Shown here in pieces: positions 5,568 to 52,505 of a DNA stretch of 64,000 nucleotides. A model generated the notes under the pieces. The model saw only the letters and a list, made by a program, of their open reading frames with translations, made no database searches and was not told where the DNA came from. The stretch spans positions 98,890,001-98,954,000 of the forward strand of contig OX597816.1 in NCBI GenBank assembly GCA_951406725.2, given 5' to 3'. The position numbers were made by a program, and so were the translations under genes. Position 1 is the stretch's first letter. Every line of letters starts with the position of its first letter. Origin of the DNA: Octopus vulgaris (taxonomy: Eukaryota).

Positions 5568-5945
5568 GGAGGTGCAATGGCCCAGTGGTTAGGGCAGCGA
5601 ACTTGCGGTCGTAGGATCGTGGTTTCGATTCTCAGACCGGGCGTTGTGTCTGTTTATTGAGCAAAAACACCTACAGCTGCAAGAGGCTTGGGCAGAGGGT
5701 GGGGGCGAACCCTGCTGTACTCTTTCACCACAACTTTCTCTCGCTCTTTCTTCCTGCTTTTGCTGTATCTGTATTTCAAATGGCCATCCTTGTCACATTC
5801 TGTGTCACACTGTATCTCCCCGAGAACTACGTAAAGGGTACACGTGTCTGTGGAGTACTCGGCCACTTGCACATTAATTTCACGAGCAGGCTGTTCCGTT
5901 GATCGGATCAGCTGGAACCTTGTTGTCGTAACGGACAGAGTGCCC
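5568..5945 (+). mobile_element. tRNA-derived SINE, family B
   Basis: tRNA-like head with A box TGGCCCAGTGG and B box GGTTTCGATTCT; body matches the copies at 18452 and 52146. Confidence 0.85.
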
Positions 5946-9899: not shown

Positions 9900-11316
9900 T
9901 CACCTGCTTCGTGCTCCTTCACCTGTCTACGTTTTTTATATTCTGTAAATTTGCACCCAATATTTTATGTTTTTATTGTCTTTTGGTTTTATGTATTTTT
10001 GTTTTACACAGTGAAATTATTTGATAAAAATAGAAATTTCCGGGCATGACTTATATTCTCGATTTCATTATACTGTATGTCATGATATATCTAAGCAAAT
10101 TCTAGTTCATTTATAAGTATATAAATTTCTTTTCTCGAAACAGACAATAAAATAGAGCAAGAGAAAATTCTGTAAATCTTTTAGTATTTTTATAATGAAC
10201 ACTTTCAAACCAACTAGTAACTGAATTCCATTCTGCGAAGATGATTCTCTAAACTAGCATTTCTGCAGGGGTTTTTTCGGGTTTTTTTTTTTTGTAATTG
10301 TTTTGTGAAATTAATTAATCTACATTTATATATCGAAATGGAATCTTAAATGTGTTCCTTCAGTGTAATATTTTTCTCCCATTGCGCTAAAAATTCCAGA
10401 TCATTATATAATTTTAGATAATGAGTTCTATTTTAAGAACCCTTTCGTTAATAATGTCAGACGATGAGTTGTTCAGACCGATAATAATAAACAATAATAA
10501 ACAGTAAACGATTTGGGTTTGAAAATCAATCAGCGTGCTAATTCATGTATTTTATATGAACTTGTATACTATATTGTGTGTGTGTCTATTTCTTTGAACC
10601 ACTTTGTATAAGTGTGTACGCATGTATGTAAGCATCTATGTATATAGGGACACACATTATGGGGCAGAAATATATTTGGCATTTCGTGTAACGTAGGTAC
10701 AATAATTTCACGGTTTTGTAAAATCCATGGTGCATATACAAATTAATAATTACAATACTAATATTCAAAATAATATATTTATTAAGATTAAATTAAATGA
10801 GACCTCATTTGTAATTTTTACAATAAACACGTTAGCAATAATAACACTGTTTAAATATGAATTAATTAATGACGTAAACTATTGATTAATTCCACATATG
10901 GCATCGTGACGAAACACCCGACAATATCATTAGTATTGATTTCGTTCATACGTATTGGGTACGCCGATTGTCTTCATGTAACCATCCATTATGTGTATGT
11001 GAGTGCGTGCTTCTGTGTGAAGAAGTATTTGTGTAGAGGGTCGCTTTGTGAAATATCACTTTTTCAACCTAAGGGTAGCATAACTGGGTTTTACCCACTT
11101 TAATAATGGGGTTTCACTACGACTGATTTAAAACCTTATGTAGTAATCATGCTAAAGAGATCATCATCCAATAAAATGAAATACCAATCCTCACACAAAT
11201 ATGATGATAAGTAATCAAAACTAGCATTAATATAATCACTTATTGATTCATATACTGTTGCCTTATCAAAACCAAGTTAGATGTTTGGCGGTCAATATGA
11301 AGCGGCTTTGTTAATG

Positions 11317-11356
<40 letters not shown>

Positions 11357-11452
11357 GGAGTAAACACATAAATGTGAAACAAGGTGGAAAAAAGAGTACT
11401 CAAATACCAGTGGTAGAGTAATATGCTTTATTTTAAGCAGCAGAAAATTCAA

Positions 11453-11502
11453 CAAAATCTGTTACTCTGAGTTTCTCGTTGCCGTTCATCAGACAGTTTT
11501 TG
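11453..11502 (-). ncRNA. Type I hammerhead ribozyme motif (left-arm copy)
   Basis: Reverse complement: CAAAAACUGU-CUGAUGA-ACGGCAACGA-GAAA-CUCAGAG-UA|ACAGAUUUUG. Confidence 0.8.
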
Positions 11503-12504
11503 CTAGAATGGAACATATATATTAATTCAATCTATACTCTTACAAACGCTACACCTTTAAAAAGAAATGGACTTGTTTGATTGGCCCTTTAGAAAAAACG
11601 GTCAATCTTCGAGCGATAAACAAAAAGGTCAAAAATATATGTATATATATATAAAAACTTATAAAAATTATAAAATCCGCGGAAAATACCGAGGAAAAAA
11701 CCTGTTGCCGTTAATGAAGACAGTACAAATTAATGCATAGAAATTAAACCTGTTATAAATACTGCAATACATATTTATATTAAAATCCACATATATATAT
11801 CAACATACACAAAAGGATGCGCGTAAACGCCATACATACATATACAGACGTATGAATATGAATCTAAATTATACACATAAAAGCATGTGTACATATATTC
11901 ACGCAAACCGTCTCGCACGCAAGCTAAAATTCATCTATGTAGCAATTCTCATATACTGAGCAAGGAGGGGGAACGAAAGAAAGGGAAAGAGAGAAAAAGG
12001 AACGGAGGAGGGGTGGAGAAAAACTTGTAGCGATGTTATTTGGCATCTATAGAGGCCAGTATACATACACAAGTTTGAATTGATACATATACATACCGTC
12101 GTGTATATGTGTGCTTAAGCACAAGCATACTTTCACTTACACATACACAGATACGCATGCTTACAAATACATATGCTTTGCTATACACAAACTTATATAA
12201 ACATTCTAAATTTGACAACATTGCTTTTTTATAAAAAAACATTGCTTTTAAAAAATGGGTGCATTAATAAAAATATATACGAAAGACCTATAAAATAAAA
12301 TATAACATCCTATTTTGGGTCATTTATAAATAATCAAGGTAATATAAATAATCAAGGTAATCTTATGCAATACAATAACATGAAAACAAAGTTTGTAGGT
12401 TTTTCCTAATATATATGTAGAAATAATAAGACTTTGCTATAGGTCCGTTGTAGCGCTCAAGAGTCAAAATCAAAATCAAAAAATCAAAATACAAAATATA
12501 TACT

Positions 12505-13383
12505 CTATCCATATGGTATATTTATATTCGACATTTTAAATTTAGCCTTGTGCCTACATAAGTTCATTAATTCACTTCTTTGATTCAAAGAATTATTGTC
12601 TTTGAATAATATGTGCATTTTTTCTAATAAGCAAAGCCTGCACTTGAAATTATATTTGTAAGCTCCATGCCTGTATGGTGCCGCCCTGTCCAGAATGCTC
12701 CATGTCACGTTGAAAGGTGGGGTTTCCTTTTCTTTTAGTTCCCAGACATATTTTGCTAGGCTGGTTTTCTTTCTATTCTCTGGGTATTTAAAAGAATTCT
12801 TATGAGAATAAAATCTTGTTTTAAATGAATTTTCTGAAGCCCCTGTGTATGTCTTGTATTCCGATGAGCCTTCCACTTGCACCTTGGCTCTATAAACTAC
12901 TCCTTTCACTAGACATTTCCCTTCTAACGGACAGGAGCTTTCGTTTTTGCAATTACATTTCTTAATGGGCTCGGCACCATGTCTAATCTCAATTAGCTTC
13001 CTATTATGTTGGCTAATGTAAGAGGCGAAATTTCTGCAACAAGAATAGCTAACCTTCAGGGTTCTTCTATTAAATATTCTGTAGAATTTATGACCCTGCC
13101 TAAAATGCTTAGAGACTAATCTCAAAAATTCCTTACCTATATTAGTCTTTACGGCCAAATTGAAAGCCGGGTTGAACCACAAAACTTTCCTAGTCCTAGT
13201 TCTTCGTGCAGCATTATTATTAGCATTAAGCTGGTTGAACTGGATCTTCTCCGAGAATCCACTATTCTTTAATGCGCTATCGTAATAAGGTGCAGCATTA
13301 TGGAATGCTGCCTCGTCCGAAGAAATTGAAGATATTCTTCTACCTACATTGCTGACTAAGTTAATAAGGATAACTATGAGCAT
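12505..13383 (-). CDS. PLE ORF C-terminal part (thumb end, CxC linker, GIY-YIG endonuclease), inverted copy, 292 aa
   Basis: Identical to the C-terminal ~289 aa of the + strand ORF; no stops. Confidence 0.85.
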   Translation of the reverse strand: MLIVILINLVSNVGRRISSISSDEAAFHNAAPYYDSALKNSGFSEKIQFNQLNANNNAARRTRTRKVLWFNPAFNLAVKTNIGKEFLRLVSKHFRQGHKFYRIFNRRTLKVSYSCCRNFASYISQHNRKLIEIRHGAEPIKKCNCKNESSCPLEGKCLVKGVVYRAKVQVEGSSEYKTYTGASENSFKTRFYSHKNSFKYPENRKKTSLAKYVWELKEKETPPFNVTWSILDRAAPYRHGAYKYNFKCRLCLLEKMHILFKDNNSLNQRSELMNLCRHKAKFKMSNINIPYG

Positions 13384-14464
13384 ACATAATTCAAACGGCC
13401 ATGAATCAGATAGACTTAGGAAGGACCTTATAGCTTTCTTTCAAAGGATGGGCTTACGGATTACGATAGATACTAACCTGAATAGTGTAGATTTTTTAGA
13501 CGTAAATTTTAATGTAAGATCGGATAGATTTAAACCTTTCCGTAAGCCCAATGAAAAGCTATCGTATATTAGCAAAGATTCGAACCATCCACCAGTTATC
13601 CTTATTAACTTAGTCAGCAATGTAGGTAGAAGAATATCTTCAATTTCTTCGGACGAGGCAGCATTCCATAATGCTGCACCTTATTACGATAGCGCATTAA
13701 AGAATAGTGGATTCTCGGAGAAGATCCAGTTCAACCAGCTTAATGCTAATAATAATGCTGCACGAAGAACTAGGACTAGGAAAGTTTTGTGGTTCAACCC
13801 GGCTTTCAATTTGGCCGTAAAGACTAATATAGGTAAGGAATTTTTGAGATTAGTCTCTAAGCATTTTAGGCAGGGTCATAAATTCTACAGAATATTTAAT
13901 AGAAGAACCCTGAAGGTTAGCTATTCTTGTTGCAGAAATTTCGCCTCTTACATTAGCCAACATAATAGGAAGCTAATTGAGATTAGACATGGTGCCGAGC
14001 CCATTAAGAAATGTAATTGCAAAAACGAAAGCTCCTGTCCGTTAGAAGGGAAATGTCTAGTGAAAGGAGTAGTTTATAGAGCCAAGGTGCAAGTGGAAGG
14101 CTCATCGGAATACAAGACATACACAGGGGCTTCAGAAAATTCATTTAAAACAAGATTTTATTCTCATAAGAATTCTTTTAAATACCCAGAGAATAGAAAG
14201 AAAACCAGCCTAGCAAAATATGTCTGGGAACTAAAAGAAAAGGAAACCCCACCTTTCAACGTGACATGGAGCATTCTGGACAGGGCGGCACCATACAGGC
14301 ATGGAGCTTACAAATATAATTTCAAGTGCAGGCTTTGCTTATTAGAAAAAATGCACATATTATTCAAAGACAATAATTCTTTGAATCAAAGAAGTGAATT
14401 AATGAACTTATGTAGGCACAAGGCTAAATTTAAAATGTCGAATATAAATATACCATATGGATAG
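13376..14464 (+). CDS. 5'-truncated PLE ORF (RT motifs 6-7 and thumb, CxCx5C linker, GIY-YIG endonuclease), 362 aa from the ATG
   Basis: VDFLDVNF...FRKP...SNHPP (PLE RT end), CNCKNESSCPLEGKC, GVVYRA...YTGASE..FKTRFYSH (GIY-YIG-like) and C-terminal CRLC...RSELMNLCRH. The catalytic YxDD motif is absent. Confidence 0.9.
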   Translation: MSIHNSNGHESDRLRKDLIAFFQRMGLRITIDTNLNSVDFLDVNFNVRSDRFKPFRKPNEKLSYISKDSNHPPVILINLVSNVGRRISSISSDEAAFHNAAPYYDSALKNSGFSEKIQFNQLNANNNAARRTRTRKVLWFNPAFNLAVKTNIGKEFLRLVSKHFRQGHKFYRIFNRRTLKVSYSCCRNFASYISQHNRKLIEIRHGAEPIKKCNCKNESSCPLEGKCLVKGVVYRAKVQVEGSSEYKTYTGASENSFKTRFYSHKNSFKYPENRKKTSLAKYVWELKEKETPPFNVTWSILDRAAPYRHGAYKYNFKCRLCLLEKMHILFKDNNSLNQRSELMNLCRHKAKFKMSNINIPYG

Positions 14465-15469
14465 AGTATATATTTTGTATTTTGATTTTTTGATTTTGAT
14501 TTTGACTCTTGAGCGCTACAACGGACCTATAGCAAAGTCTTATTATTTCTACATATATATTAGGAAAAACCTACAAACTTTGTTTTCATGTTATTGTATT
14601 GCATAAGATTACCTTGATTATTTATATTACCTTGATTATTTATAAATGACCCAAAATAGGATGTTATATTTTATTTTATAGGTCTTTCGTATATATTTTT
14701 ATTAATGCACCCATTTTTTAAAAGCAATGTTTTTTTATAAAAAAAGCAATGTTGTCAAATTTAGAATGTTTATATAAGTTTGTGTATAGCAAAGCATATG
14801 TATTTGTAAGCATGCGTATCTGTGTATGTGTAAGTGAAAGTATGCTTGTGCTTAAGCACACATATACACGACGGTATGTATATGTATCAATTCAAACTTG
14901 TGTATGTATACTGGCCTCTATAGATGCCAAATAACATCGCTACAAGTTTTTTCTCCACCCCTCCTCCGTTCCTTTTTCTCTCTTTCCCTTTCTTTCGTTC
15001 CCCCTCCTTGCTTCAGTATATGAGAATTGCTACATAGATGAATTTTAGCTTGCGTGCGAGACGGTTTGCGTGAATATATGTACACATGCTTTTATGTGTA
15101 TAATTTAGATTCATATTCATACGTCTGTATATGTATGTATGGCGTTTACGCGCATCCTTTTGTGTATGTTGATATATATATGTGGATTTTAATATAAATA
15201 TGTATTGCAGTATTTATAACAGGTTTAATTTCTATGCATTAATTTGTACTGTCTTCATTAACGGCAACAGGTTTTTTCCTCGGTATTTTCCGCGGATTTT
15301 ATAATTTTTATAAGTTTTTATATATATATACATATATTTTTGACCTTTTTGTTTATCGCTCGAAGATTGACCGTTTTTTCTAAAGGGCCAATCAAACAAG
15401 TCCATTTCTTTTTAAAGGTGTAGCGTTTGTAAGAGTATAGATTGAATTAATATATATGTTCCATTCTAG

Positions 15470-15519
15470 CAAAAACTGTCTGATGAACGGCAACGAGAAA
15501 CTCAGAGTAACAGATTTTG
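15470..15519 (+). ncRNA. Type I hammerhead ribozyme motif (right-arm copy)
   Basis: Core CTGATGA (15480-15486) and GAAA (15497-15500); stem II CG-GCAA-CG; stem III ACTC-A-GAGT; predicted cleavage after GUA (15509); stem I CAAAA-A-CTGT pairs with ACAG-A-TTTTG. Confidence 0.82.
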
Positions 15520-15545
15520 TTGAATTTTCTGCTGCTTAAAATAAA

Positions 15546-15585
<40 letters not shown>

Positions 15586-18609: not shown

Positions 18610-18714
18610 TGGCGGTGCCCCAGCATGGCCACAGCTCAAGAGCTGAAACTGGAAAAACAAAAAACAAAAACAAAAAACATACATAAATACAGATATATAC
18701 ACTTTGTATATATA

Positions 18715-18980
18715 CATTATATATACATATTTATATATAGAACACACACACACACACATTATATATACATATTTATATATAGAACACACACACACACACA
18801 CACATTATATATACATATTTATATATAGAACACACACACACACATACATTATATATACATATTTATATATAGAACACACACACACACATACATTATATAT
18901 ACATATTTATATATAGAACACACACACACATACATTATATATACATATATATATAGAACACACACACACACGCACACATA
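18715..18980. repeat. Minisatellite, ~40-bp unit x ~6
   Basis: Unit CATTATATATACATATTTATATATAGAA(CA)n. Confidence 0.9.
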
Positions 18981-20069
18981 TAAATGAACGCAAGAATATC
19001 TGATTCATAATATTTGTTCTCATGCTCGTGTGTTGATTGTTGGTGACAGACATATACTTCAAAGAACGCCGCCAAAGTGATAGGAAGGTAGGAAACAGAG
19101 TCAGTGAAAAAGAAAGGAAATAGCGATAGTGACAGATACTTTAAATAACCGTAGTGGCATTCTGAAAGTTATAAATGAAGAGGAGTGACAGAGTACTGGA
19201 GGAAATAGGGTGAGGTAGGAAGATGGCCCCTAGAAACCACAGCTTTTAAGATAGGGATTTCTAAGGTAGCCACGCGCATCGTCACCTCATTCTACATGTC
19301 CCTGTAAATTTTGGAGCGAATCGGACGGGATGTAGTGACATTGAAAGCGAACCAAGCGGTAGCGAAGATATGTTTTTATGTTACTTATATCCATTTACGT
19401 TGTTTTATTTATGCATTTTTAAATTTTTCATCACCTCTCGTATCTCTTTCTATTAAATATCACCAAAAACTAAGTCTTTATGAATTTGTACCTTCGACAT
19501 TTTCTCAATCTGTAGTTTTGTCTATAACTGAAATGTAATAATGATTAAAACATGTTAAACATTTAATATTATCTTCACTGCAAAATACAAACAAATCAGC
19601 TGACAAAATGCAGAAAAATATGTCTCCAACTGCCTAATGTTTCTTTCTCTTAAACCATACAAGGAGTAGTCATCAGCTGTTCCATAAGTCTAAGAATTTT
19701 GCTTAACTCTAGTTTGTATACATAATAAATACTTATAAACTTTCTATCTACTACATCTTTTATGCCGTGCATAGAAGATGGATAAATTTTGTTATTGTTG
19801 TTTTTATCTGATGAAGGCATAAGAAGCCTACTGTAGAAACAAATCAAATTAATTCCATATACATAAGCGCGTGTGATATTCAGCATTTATTATAATATCT
19901 TTTTATTTTTACTTTCCATATGGATGCTAAATATCATGTTATGTACAAAAATTATGTATCATATTACCTAAAAGTTGTGGTATGAAACAATTCGTCTCAC
20001 ACGCACGCGCACACATACACACACATACACACACATACACACTCACACATAATATTTACTCTTGGTACT

Positions 20070-43223: not shown

Positions 43224-44647
43224 TGTGGGCAATTATGGAGTGAATTTTAGGGCTTATAAATCTAATAATCTTCTATCCTTCCTTAATACCGGTTCCCATA
43301 TGCTGCTCATATCTACACTCGGTCTACTTAGAATATTGTTGTGTCCTAGCATATGTGCTGCTTCTTTTAGCTCGCGTATTTTCTAGTGGTGTTCTCTGTC
43401 TATTATTTTAACTTCATCCCACAGGGGGAGGTACTCTCCATTTTTCCATACATGATCAGCGATACCCGATTTGTCAATATTACCTCGTGTCACAGCTTTG
43501 CGATGTTCGTCTACCCTTATTTTAAGGGAGCGGCATGTTTCGTCTTCGAAGAACCTACCACAGTTGCATAGGATGGAGTACACTCAGTCTTTGGTCATAT
43601 TCTTTTCTATTGGTGGTTTTACTGGAAGGAGATATTTGTGAAGTGTTTTATTACTCATGAATACTCTCCTGATGTCACATGGGGCGCATATCTTTTGTAT
43701 CTTTTCGGAGAAGCCTTTCAGACAGACTGCAGATAGTTTATTGGCCTCATCCTCTCTCTTCTTCATAATTGGAGTGGGTAATATAATATTGGGGTAGTTG
43801 TTGCTTAACAGATCGTTATTGAGCTCATCATTTAGTAAAGGTCGGCTTGCGGTGTACGGATGTCCTGAATCCATACTTGGTGCGTGTTGTTAATACGTCC
43901 AGGAATGCTAGCTGATTGCCTTTTTCTTTTTCCATTGTGAACTGTATTGATGGTTTTATTGAGTTTACATGATCTAACAGCACTCGGATATCGTCCTGGT
44001 GAGGCCAGAGTACAAAGGTGTCTTCAACATATCGTAGCCATAGTGTTGGTTTTAGTGGTGTTGATACTAAAGTCAAATTCTCAAAGTATTCCATTGTATA
44101 TATTGGCTATTAACGGTGATAATGGCGAACCCATAGCTAAACCCTCCTCAAATCGATATATATCAGTTTCCATACTGAAGTAGGTAGTTTCTACACAGAA
44201 GGTCAACATTTCCATCAAGTTTCTAATTGGTATACTAGTGCGTTCTTTTGGATAGGTGTCTGTCAATAGTTTTTCTTTTGTCTCCGATAGTGCTTCGCCA
44301 GTTGGGGCTTTGGTGAACAGGTTTATCACATCTATACTCACCATCAGGCTGGTTTCAATGTGAGTATTCTTGATCAATTCTGTAGAGTGGGTGGAATTCT
44401 TCACGTACGATGTTGACTTTGTCAACATCATTTTTCTACATTTTCTATCCCTTTTTCTTCGTTGCTCAATTCTCTCATCTTTCATTCTCATCTTTTTGTT
44501 TCCACATCGCTAATACTTCTCAAATATCACTTCCTTCAAACTGTTCATTCTCCTTAACTTAGCGTTACTTCTTTTAGCATAGTACCCCCTCTCACTATCC
44601 TACTAATGTTTTACCCTCTTATCTCCCTCTTTCTCTCACTCTCTTTC

Positions 44648-45914: not shown

Positions 45915-46099
45915 AGTAAACACATAAATGTGAAACAAGGTGGAAAAAAGAGTACTCAAATACCAGTGGTAGAGTAATATGCTTTATTTTAAGCAGCAGA
46001 AAATTCAACAAAATCTGTTACTCTGAGTTTGGTCTGATGAACGGCAACGAGAAACTCAGAGTAACAGATTTTGTTGAATTTTCTGCTGCTTAAAATAAA

Positions 46100-46100
<1 letters not shown>
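45915..46100. mobile_element. Miniature inverted derivative of the 11355-15546 PLE family
   Basis: Tail 45915-45981 is identical to 11359-11425. 49-bp perfect inverted arms (45982-46030 and 46052-46100) enclose a 21-bp spacer holding CTGATGA. It ends at the same AAATAAAG|(TA)n junction. Confidence 0.92.
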
Positions 46101-46134
<34 letters not shown>

Positions 46135-46142
<8 letters not shown>

Positions 46143-46584
46143 AGTGTATTTTTACCTTGTTAACAATTAACACGGAAAAATAAATAAATAGTTACCAGGG
46201 CAGCAAAAATCTCACAAGTAAAGGTGTTGTAACTCCTTGTTTATAAAGGTAGAAACTTCGTGTTTACGTTGAATATTTTGAATAATATGAATAAAAAAAA
46301 TTGAGTTAACGCAGGTGTAATCAAATATTTTTACTTTCGACACATGTTTCGAAAATTCCACTGATACTATTCAAAAGAATAAATGGTATAAACAATGCAA
46401 ACTTTTTTTTTTTTTGCTAAAATGTCTTATTGACGAGTTTCGTTTTTTTCACTTTCCTGAGGAGAAGATTGCATTGTATATACCATTTATTCTTTTGAAT
46501 AGTATCAGTGTAATTTCCGAATCATGTATCGAAACTAAGAATATTTGATTACACCTGCGTTAACTCCATTTTTTTATTCATATA
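46135..46584. mobile_element. Second miniature inverted PLE-like terminus with a long stem II hammerhead
   Basis: ~116-bp diverged inverted arms (46285-46400 and 46469-46584), a ~150-bp extension on the left only, and (TA)n on both sides. Confidence 0.7.
46451..46536 (+). ncRNA. Hammerhead-like motif with a ~55-nt stem II (decayed; intact 3' core retained in the opposite arm)
   Basis: ACUUUC-CUGAGGA-[long hairpin 46464-46518]-GAAU-CAUGU-AUC|GAAACU. The left arm (46333-46350, minus strand) reads GAAAC-AUGU-GUC|GAAAGU, restoring GAAA, GUC and a 6-bp stem I. Confidence 0.65.
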
Positions 46585-52140: not shown

Positions 52141-52145
52141 GAGTG

Positions 52146-52505
52146 TTTAGGGCAGCGGACTCGCGGTCATAGGATCACGGTTTCGATTCCCAGACCGGGC
52201 GTTGTGAGTGTTTATTGAGCGAAAACACCTAAAGCTCCACGACGCTCCGGCAGGAGATGATGGTGATCCCTGCTGTACTCTTTCACCACAACTTTCTCTC
52301 ACTCTTACTTCCTGTTTCTGTTGTACTTGTATTTCAAAGGGCCGGCCTTGTCACTCTCTATGTCACGCTGAATATCCCCGAGAACTACGTTAAGGGTACA
52401 CGTGTCTGTGGAGTGCTCAGCCACTTACACGTTAATTTCACGAGCAGGCTGTTCCGTTGATTCGGATCAACCGGAACCCTCGTCCTCGTAACCGATGGAG
52501 TGCTT
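52146..52505 (+). mobile_element. tRNA-derived SINE, family B
   Basis: TTAGGGCAGCGGACTCGCGGTC...GGTTTCGATTCCCAGACCGGGCG; body colinear with 5568-5945. Confidence 0.88.

Follow-up and report, generated by a model that had tools for sequence, protein, structure and literature searches.

A head-to-head Penelope-like insertion in Octopus vulgaris and candidate paired RNA hairpins near its two 3′ ends

A stretch of 64,000 nucleotides (nt) of Octopus vulgaris DNA (GenBank assembly GCA_951406725.2, contig OX597816.1, positions 98,890,001–98,954,000 of the forward strand; the whole stretch is here called the window, and all positions refer to it) carries, in AT- and microsatellite-rich surroundings, a palindromic insertion of a Penelope-like element (PLE). 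The insertion occupies 11355–15546 and consists of two 5′-truncated copies of the element in head-to-head orientation between two TA repeats. The copies end at different 3′ positions, which suggest two start sites of reverse transcription on the element RNA.

Layout of the insertion and its encoded protein

The palindrome is formed by an inverted copy at 11426–13375 (minus strand, left arm, 1,950 base pairs (bp)) and a direct copy whose paired part lies at 13594–15546 (plus strand, right arm, 1,953 bp). The alignment of the arms, 1,950 columns long, shows no substitution and three one-base indels, at each of which the left arm is one base short (near 11959, 12019 and 12225) and none of which falls in an open reading frame (ORF). 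A preliminary description of this DNA, made from its letters alone, had reported inverted arms of about 1.95 kb differing by 3 bp in length through single-base indels outside the ORF, together with a 218-bp spacer and (TA)n flanks; the alignment agrees, the spacer separating the arms measures 218 bp, and repeat counts give (TA)16 on the left (11323–11354) and (TA)19 on the right (15547–15584). Its picture of a symmetric twin palindrome holds for the inverted arms, but the structure as a whole is asymmetric: a 71-nt tail (11355–11425, minus strand) extends the left arm and is absent from the right one, and the first 9 bp of the spacer (13376–13384) are a filler foreign to the family. The unique sequences to the left and right of the insertion show no mutual similarity.

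The remaining 209 bp of the spacer (13385–13593, plus strand) are the unpaired 5′ part of the direct copy, which starts about five codons past the YRDD motif of the reverse transcriptase (RT). Window positions 10700–13593, with 11313–11361 left out, were compared with contigs from four of the 24 sequencing runs listed. In family contigs the match to the spacer begins only at 13385, and this position is joined to upstream YRDD codons (four contigs in run X1 and one in run X19), indicating that the break point of the direct copy lies immediately downstream of the RT active site and that 13376–13384 is filler. The filler has no clear template, its longest match elsewhere in the element being 7 nt.

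One in-frame ATG per strand is provided by the filler, which gives each copy an ORF with a junction-derived start codon. The plus-strand ORF (13376–14464, 362 amino acids (aa)) comprises the end of the RT palm, the thumb, a CxCx5C linker and a GIY-YIG endonuclease, and the minus-strand ORF (12505–13383, 292 aa) a remnant of the thumb, the linker and the endonuclease; they correspond approximately to residues 358–711 and 426–711 of a 713-aa relative (56% identity). Both are 5′-truncated and lack the YRDD active site, and the endonuclease domain is whole in each, so that what had been described as twin intact GIY-YIG ORFs are complete endonucleases but not intact element genes. Nor are the two proteins identical, as first proposed, identity being confined to their last 289 residues. 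Fusion of RT and endonuclease in a single ORF is a property of the family, as seen in its contigs and in 49 longer relatives (646–940 aa), and not of either window copy. In the direct copy the linker and endonuclease (aa 213–348) lie at 14012–14419 on the plus strand, followed by a 3′ untranslated region (UTR) of 1.08 kb (14465–15546, plus strand). This UTR and an ORF of about 710 aa suggest a full unit of about 3.3 kb; tandem units of related loci measure 2.4–2.8 kb.

The Hydra clade of PLEs is marked by RWK and DKT motifs, a CxCx5C linker, the lack of a CCHH motif, CxxC and CxH motifs around the conserved E and N, canonical hammerhead ribozymes and (TA)n targets (Craig et al. 2021, PMC8557442; this and the other papers given by PMC number are drawn on for the parts available). 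Every one of these features whose region survives in the window fragment is present. The linker occupies aa 213–221 and retains its cysteines; the endonuclease contains no CCHH motif, with zero cysteines between aa 227 and 318, and keeps Y234, Y249, G251, R260, E324 and N337. Alignment of the window protein with 45 of the longer relatives (46 rows) shows C318xxC321, E324, N337 and C346xH348 to be invariant, and YRDD is found in 43 rows, DKT in 40, CxCx5C in 35, RW[KR] in 34 and DKG in none. The closest relative (P0001, 56%) carries RWK and DKT in an N-terminal region that is missing from the window copy. By eye, the block after the thumb resembles the Hydra rows and not the Penelope or Poseidon rows of the alignment in the supplement of PMC8557442, so far as that supplement was available. 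The predicted structure of the window protein has a mean pLDDT (a per-residue model confidence score) of 87.5, and its residues 230–340 superpose on the catalytic domain of I-TevI (Z-score 9.7, root-mean-square deviation 2.3, 89 aligned residues), the next three structural matches including T4 EndoII and UvrC. A Foldseek search of the model against the PDB returned nothing at E ≤ 0.001, Pfam gave no family for the window proteins or for seven relatives, and a sequence search of the PDB returned a retron RT at E 0.03 and nothing else. Taken together, motifs, fold, hammerheads and the by-eye block comparison support the assignment to the Hydra clade, in line with the preliminary description of a (TA)n-targeted Hydra-clade element with CxCx5C and without CCHH, with which the motifs and both (TA)n flanks agree.

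At the second linker cysteine (aa 215; positions 12950 and 14019), 63–100% of the summed depth in all four runs belongs to an allele that changes it to phenylalanine. The window copy retains this cysteine, which is invariant in the 46 aligned proteins. Amplification in trans of a subfamily with a defective linker is a possible reading, although the depth sums are not copy numbers.

A second insertion of the same family, of 186 bp, lies at 45915–46100 and repeats the layout of the large one in miniature with other break points: a 67-nt tail with a 49-bp inverted arm, a 1-bp filler and a 69-bp direct copy, flanked on the right by (TA)17 (46101–46134). Its tail end does not lie in (TA)n and its opposite end does; the start site that produces the tail may thus tolerate non-TA targets.

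Two classes of 3′ end and a paired hairpin

Each copy carries a minimal type I hammerhead motif with the stem layout of Hydra-2_aMil, at 15476–15513 on the plus strand (core at 15480, predicted cut after 15509; 2-bp stem II, palindromic stem III with a 1-nt loop) and at 11459–11496 on the minus strand (core at 11492, predicted cut after 11463). These motif matches stand near the ends and had been called terminal hammerheads, but the predicted cuts lie inside them, by 37 nt on the right and by 108 nt on the left. The end of the right arm is here called proximal and that of the tail distal. In the set of related loci, the best 80 of at least 405 confirmed short-read metagenome loci, the same motif search returns 56 hammerheads in 49 loci, 55 of them in sense orientation, against 0.05 in shuffled sequence. 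An Rfam scan reported no hammerhead and only chance matches of microRNA type, and folding of the monomer gives no significant score (z −1.07).

A (TA)n repeat follows 14 of the 56 hammerheads within 260 nt, and its distances from the cut fall into a short class (36, 37, 37, 39, 42, 43 and 47 nt) and a long class (79, 92, 92, 94, 104, 111 and 113 nt), with which the two ends in the window agree. Both ends of the large copy and the right end of the small one lie in (TA)n. In two runs, 27 and 55 contigs depart from the element at 11421 into (TA)n-type sequence, which shows that the proximal end is used family-wide.

Two further observations concern the related loci. At positions 2305–2567 of one of them (L050), two different Hydra-type families stand tail to tail across a single (TA)n run, each ending at its distal site with one hairpin of the kind described below. 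Six contigs of about one unit (L001, L010, L028, L049, L072 and L079) have direct terminal overlaps, as tandem arrays or circles would give.

The segment between the two ends contains a bulged hairpin. In the window it lies at 11398–11419 (minus strand, hairpin 1), starting 6 nt beyond the proximal end and 43 nt from the ribozyme cut, and consists of a 4-bp outer stem, a 4-bp inner stem and a U-rich 3′ bulge. In general, the outer stem has 4 bp and mostly reads GCTC/GAGC, the inner stem varies, and the 3′ side bears a two-base bulge rich in pyrimidines. Among 58 tails (50 distinct, 35 long enough to score), the strict motif occurs in 27 of the 35 usable distinct tails, whereas 500 shuffles give 1.0 on average and 5 at most. 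When cases are selected by the outer stem only (42 distinct), an inner stem of at least 3 bp with a 2-nt bulge is found in 18 (1,000 shuffles: mean 1.8, maximum 8), and with bulges of 1, 3 and 4 nt in 0, 2 and 0 cases, respectively; the first inner pair is C–G in 23 and T–A in 12. The motif is concentrated behind the ribozyme, 50 of 73 occurrences lying downstream of a hammerhead, in regions that make up 4% of the sequence. RNAalifold recovers the structure from 22 hairpins, with changes on both sides of the first and second inner pairs (11 and 10, respectively), although this set is biased, its members having been picked for the motif. The outermost pair is changed on both sides in the window and in one related locus (L018).

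Tails often carry the hairpin twice. Two hairpins are present in 12 of 29 tails, with a spacing of 56–71 nt between hairpin 1 and hairpin 2 in 11 of 13. Twelve loci have an ORF downstream, and in 8 of them the start codon lies at +146 to +167, which places the hairpins in a leader between ribozyme and start codon. Element ends fall just 5′ of the hairpins: the proximal end in the window is 6 nt before hairpin 1, breaks in L062/L066 and L047 lie 3–10 nt before it, and the (TA)n-ended copy in L059 terminates at TATA bases some 6 nt ahead of hairpin 2.

These observations suggest that the two hairpins, separated in the leader by about 60 nt, form a cis-acting RNA element not described before. Each of them would dock one subunit of a dimeric RT-endonuclease and set the start of reverse transcription a few bases to its 5′ side, at TA-like template bases. 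We regard this proposal as evenly poised. The hairpins are undescribed in the literature searched, and a related fold may exist in Repbase notes or supplementary figures, for example Fig. S2C of PMC11167929. The words 'hairpin' and 'stem-loop' are absent from the available parts of the PMC8557442 supplement and of PMC7229834, and 'hairpin' from that of PMC4209133.

The near-invariance of the outer stem could instead mean that GCTC...GAGC acts as DNA, whether as an endonuclease recognition site, a cruciform or a leader promoter, or that it serves translation or ribozyme folding, its placement beside the ends being secondary. The location of the hairpins in the leader fits such roles, and cleavage by the D. 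virilis endonuclease depended on the presence of the tail in the plasmid DNA (as cited in PMC11167929). However, internal mismatches are G–U in 9 cases, A–C in 1 and other in 7, and this excess of G–U over A–C, together with the one-sided bulge, favours sense-strand RNA; the clustering of ends immediately 5′ of the hairpins also argues for a role in their placement. Reverse-complemented tails give 11 motif matches, a weak control because the outer stem is symmetric. A role as DNA, in translation or in ribozyme folding is possible but doubtful.

Origin of the palindrome

We propose, with a probability of about 0.7, that the locus records one insertion of a high-copy Hydra-type PLE into (TA)n, in which both cut strands primed reverse transcription at two RNA sites to give two 5′-truncated head-to-head copies, the complementary DNA (cDNA) ends being joined via the 9-bp filler. 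The one-sided tail, the unrelated flanks, the near-identical arms and the small copy of the same layout speak for it. Each hairpin would position one RT subunit, and synthesis would begin a few bases to its 5′ side, at TA-like bases able to pair with the target. The right flank would prime at the proximal site and the left flank at the distal one, which would leave hairpin 1 and the tail on the left copy only. Both cDNAs would then pass the ribozyme site into the 3′ UTR and ORF, for which the template would be a circle or a tandem transcript left uncut. A single RNA may have been copied twice, the second cDNA displacing the first, or two RNAs from one source may have been used. To our knowledge PLE RTs lack RNase H, so that one RNA could be copied twice. 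The two cDNA ends would finally be joined through the filler.

Biochemical work on a Poseidon PLE in vitro provides a precedent, as both strands were cut and extended, two internal starts bounded the tail, a dimer was predicted and uncut RNA was used (Frangieh et al., PMC11167929). Hammerheads with a palindromic stem III and a one-base loop are of a type said to need a dimer (PMC4209133), and the stem III of the window is thus consistent with an uncut template. The preliminary description had already taken the locus for an inverted, 5′-truncated PLE insertion, which the arm layout and the known PLE precedents bear out.

Several observations weigh against this account and against the role given to the hairpins. 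The in vitro priming data come from another PLE clade, and a long head-to-head copy is seen in none of the best 80 short-read loci. Among the contigs and reads listed for the four runs, none spans the locus or the 13375/13376 junction, contigs stopping at the (TA)n run. The locus with the 111-nt distance (L006) has an ORF after its (TA)n run, which may therefore be internal. The strict hairpin motif is missing from 8 of the 35 usable tails, and the tie between end and hairpin within one family comes from four paired cases only (the window, L059, L062/L066 and L047), and microhomology makes the end position uncertain by several bases. The window itself has no hairpin 2: the tail of the large copy reaches 7 nt, and that of the small copy about 3 nt, past the point at which this hairpin is predicted to begin, unlike the end in L059, which lies before it. 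An exact-pattern scan of genome contigs and viral contigs for the tail gave no match, so that the predicted hairpin 2 beyond the tail was not seen there.

Alternatively, a single cDNA or antisense RNA might have folded back on itself, the second arm being copied from the first. Self-priming of this kind would account at once for the identity of the arms and for the rare alleles that they share (see below); a 4-bp inverted repeat is present at the junction, and junction palindromes of Adineta Penelope elements have been read in this way (PMC3846280). The asymmetries of the locus make it unlikely. A copy of the right-arm cDNA could not contain the 71-nt tail, and if the left arm had been the template the unpaired 209 bp would be antisense, yet they continue the right arm in sense. 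In addition, the junction hairpin is barely stable (−0.1 kcal/mol) and the two conserved end classes would be left unexplained.

It is improbable that the palindrome is an assembly artefact, either a fold-back read or a mis-join of two insertions through a shared repeat. Structures of this type are known to trouble assemblies (PMC8557442), all three indels are a missing base in one arm, two of them in homopolymers, as in long-read consensus errors, and no spanning read was seen in the contig comparison. A fold-back would nevertheless mirror the flank, whereas the flanks are unrelated, the tail is one-sided and a filler marks the junction; the small copy, moreover, has the same layout independently. 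The alleles of the arms also bear on this point. At 12424 and 12723 an allele other than that of the window makes up at least 99.4% of the depth in all four runs, and both arms carry the window allele. Alleles so rare in the family point to a single source for both arms and argue against a mis-join of random copies. The residual depth of the window's rare alleles is inconsistent from site to site.

With no substitution in 1,950 bp, the 95% upper bound on arm divergence is 0.15%; the very recent insertion first suggested is plausible, although gene conversion between the arms could also keep them identical. The family probably has hundreds of copies: single contigs of run X19 identical to the window reach depths of 8,404 and 7,424 over a flank depth of 17.4, which is not a copy number. 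The earlier view of a probably active family finds partial support in hundreds of near-identical copies and in longer copies that reach the RT active site, but no intact full-length ORF or transcript was seen; ten runs guessed to be RNA, possibly DNA, contain 0.64–0.74 of the words and give no evidence of expression. In all, the locus is probably a real, young insertion of a new high-copy Hydra-type family, and is itself predicted to be dead for transposition.

That the host retains the two junction-made ORFs as a source of stand-alone GIY-YIG nuclease is highly improbable, for although both frames run open to the natural stop with the junction ATG in frame and all invariant endonuclease residues kept, a single 8-bp palindrome within the filler yields both ATGs, one from each half, and both would fall in frame by chance about once in 9 cases. 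A promoter would not fit between the ATGs, any RNA from read-through is expected to pair into a long duplex, and open frames are what a young copy should show.

In a run with another organism label (X10) the family is present at about 1% divergence and low depth, without the flank, which a relative, low coverage or transfer would all fit; several loose ends of that run consist of the same palindromic sequence, which probably stems from a library adaptor. About 1 kb to the left of the insertion, a decayed N-terminal RT fragment of an older Hydra-type element with a stop codon lies at 10147–10417 (minus strand). Another RT fragment, at 44084–44509 (minus strand), has a weak match to Pfam RVT_1 (E 0.006) and a different motif set, possibly that of another PLE clade. 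The window further contains an imperfect inverted repeat of about 300 bp at 46285–46583 (79% self-complementary, resembling a miniature inverted-repeat transposable element), a dispersed pair of 300-bp repeats at 5584–5883 and 52142–52441 (85%) and a 44-bp minisatellite at 18670–19019. No host gene was found among the 57 of 86 long frames scanned against Pfam, the weak RT fragment being the only match, and not a convincing one.

Significance and relation to known systems

Inverted, truncated and tailed copies have already been described for PLEs, so that the architecture of the window is known; the locus is a clean, young-looking case of this insertion type, and its value is mechanistic. The choice of start site, the one-sided tail and the inverted copies of PLEs are largely open questions, with one element tested in vitro. 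As short, covarying and mutable RNA targets, the paired hairpins make the question of start sites directly testable. Docking of RT subunits on them, if true, would explain the tail, the head-to-head palindromes and the (TA)n targeting in one step. PLEs are the closest relatives of telomerase RT, and such docking would mean that a telomerase-related RT uses an RNA signal resembling a template boundary. Read-through transcripts of the locus would fold into 1.95 kb of double-stranded RNA, a source of such RNA against a family of hundreds of copies.

In LINE-1 twin priming, both target strands prime cDNA and the joined products yield an inversion. There the parts derive from non-overlapping segments of the RNA, whereas in the window both cover the same 1.95 kb and a palindrome results.

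Within the Hydra clade as described in PMC8557442, the window shares the linker, the lack of CCHH, the CxxC and CxH motifs, the 3′-UTR hammerhead with a canonical core, the (TA)n target and the WFNP...KVSYSC block. Hydra-2_aMil has hammerhead stems I and III as in the window, and Hydra-1_Obim is a separate family whose protein and hammerhead differ by eye from those of the window. The 3′ UTR of 1.08 kb contrasts with 70–540 nt to the hammerhead in most related loci (1,108 in one), and the unit of the clade is generally under 3 kb (PMC8557442). The tail of 67–71 nt is a further trait of the window family, and twin hairpins go unmentioned in the Hydra-clade descriptions in the available part of that paper. 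An inverted 5′-truncated copy of 966 nt is listed for Penelope-13_HM, compared with the 1.95-kb inverted arm here, so that the 'unusually long' inverted segment of the preliminary description is a matter of degree.

The inverted pseudo-LTR (pseudo-long terminal repeat) insertions of Penelope and Poseidon show the closest structural parallel (PMC3846280; PMC11167929). They share with the window a 5′-truncated head-to-head copy, a tail at one end, two 3′ ends that match two RT starts and a hammerhead upstream of them. They belong, however, to another clade, which has DKG and CCHH, and their tail of 30–40 bp is about half of that found here. In the PAc element the starts are associated with one AC-rich stem-loop inside the ORF, whereas the window family has two similar bulged hairpins in an untranslated leader.

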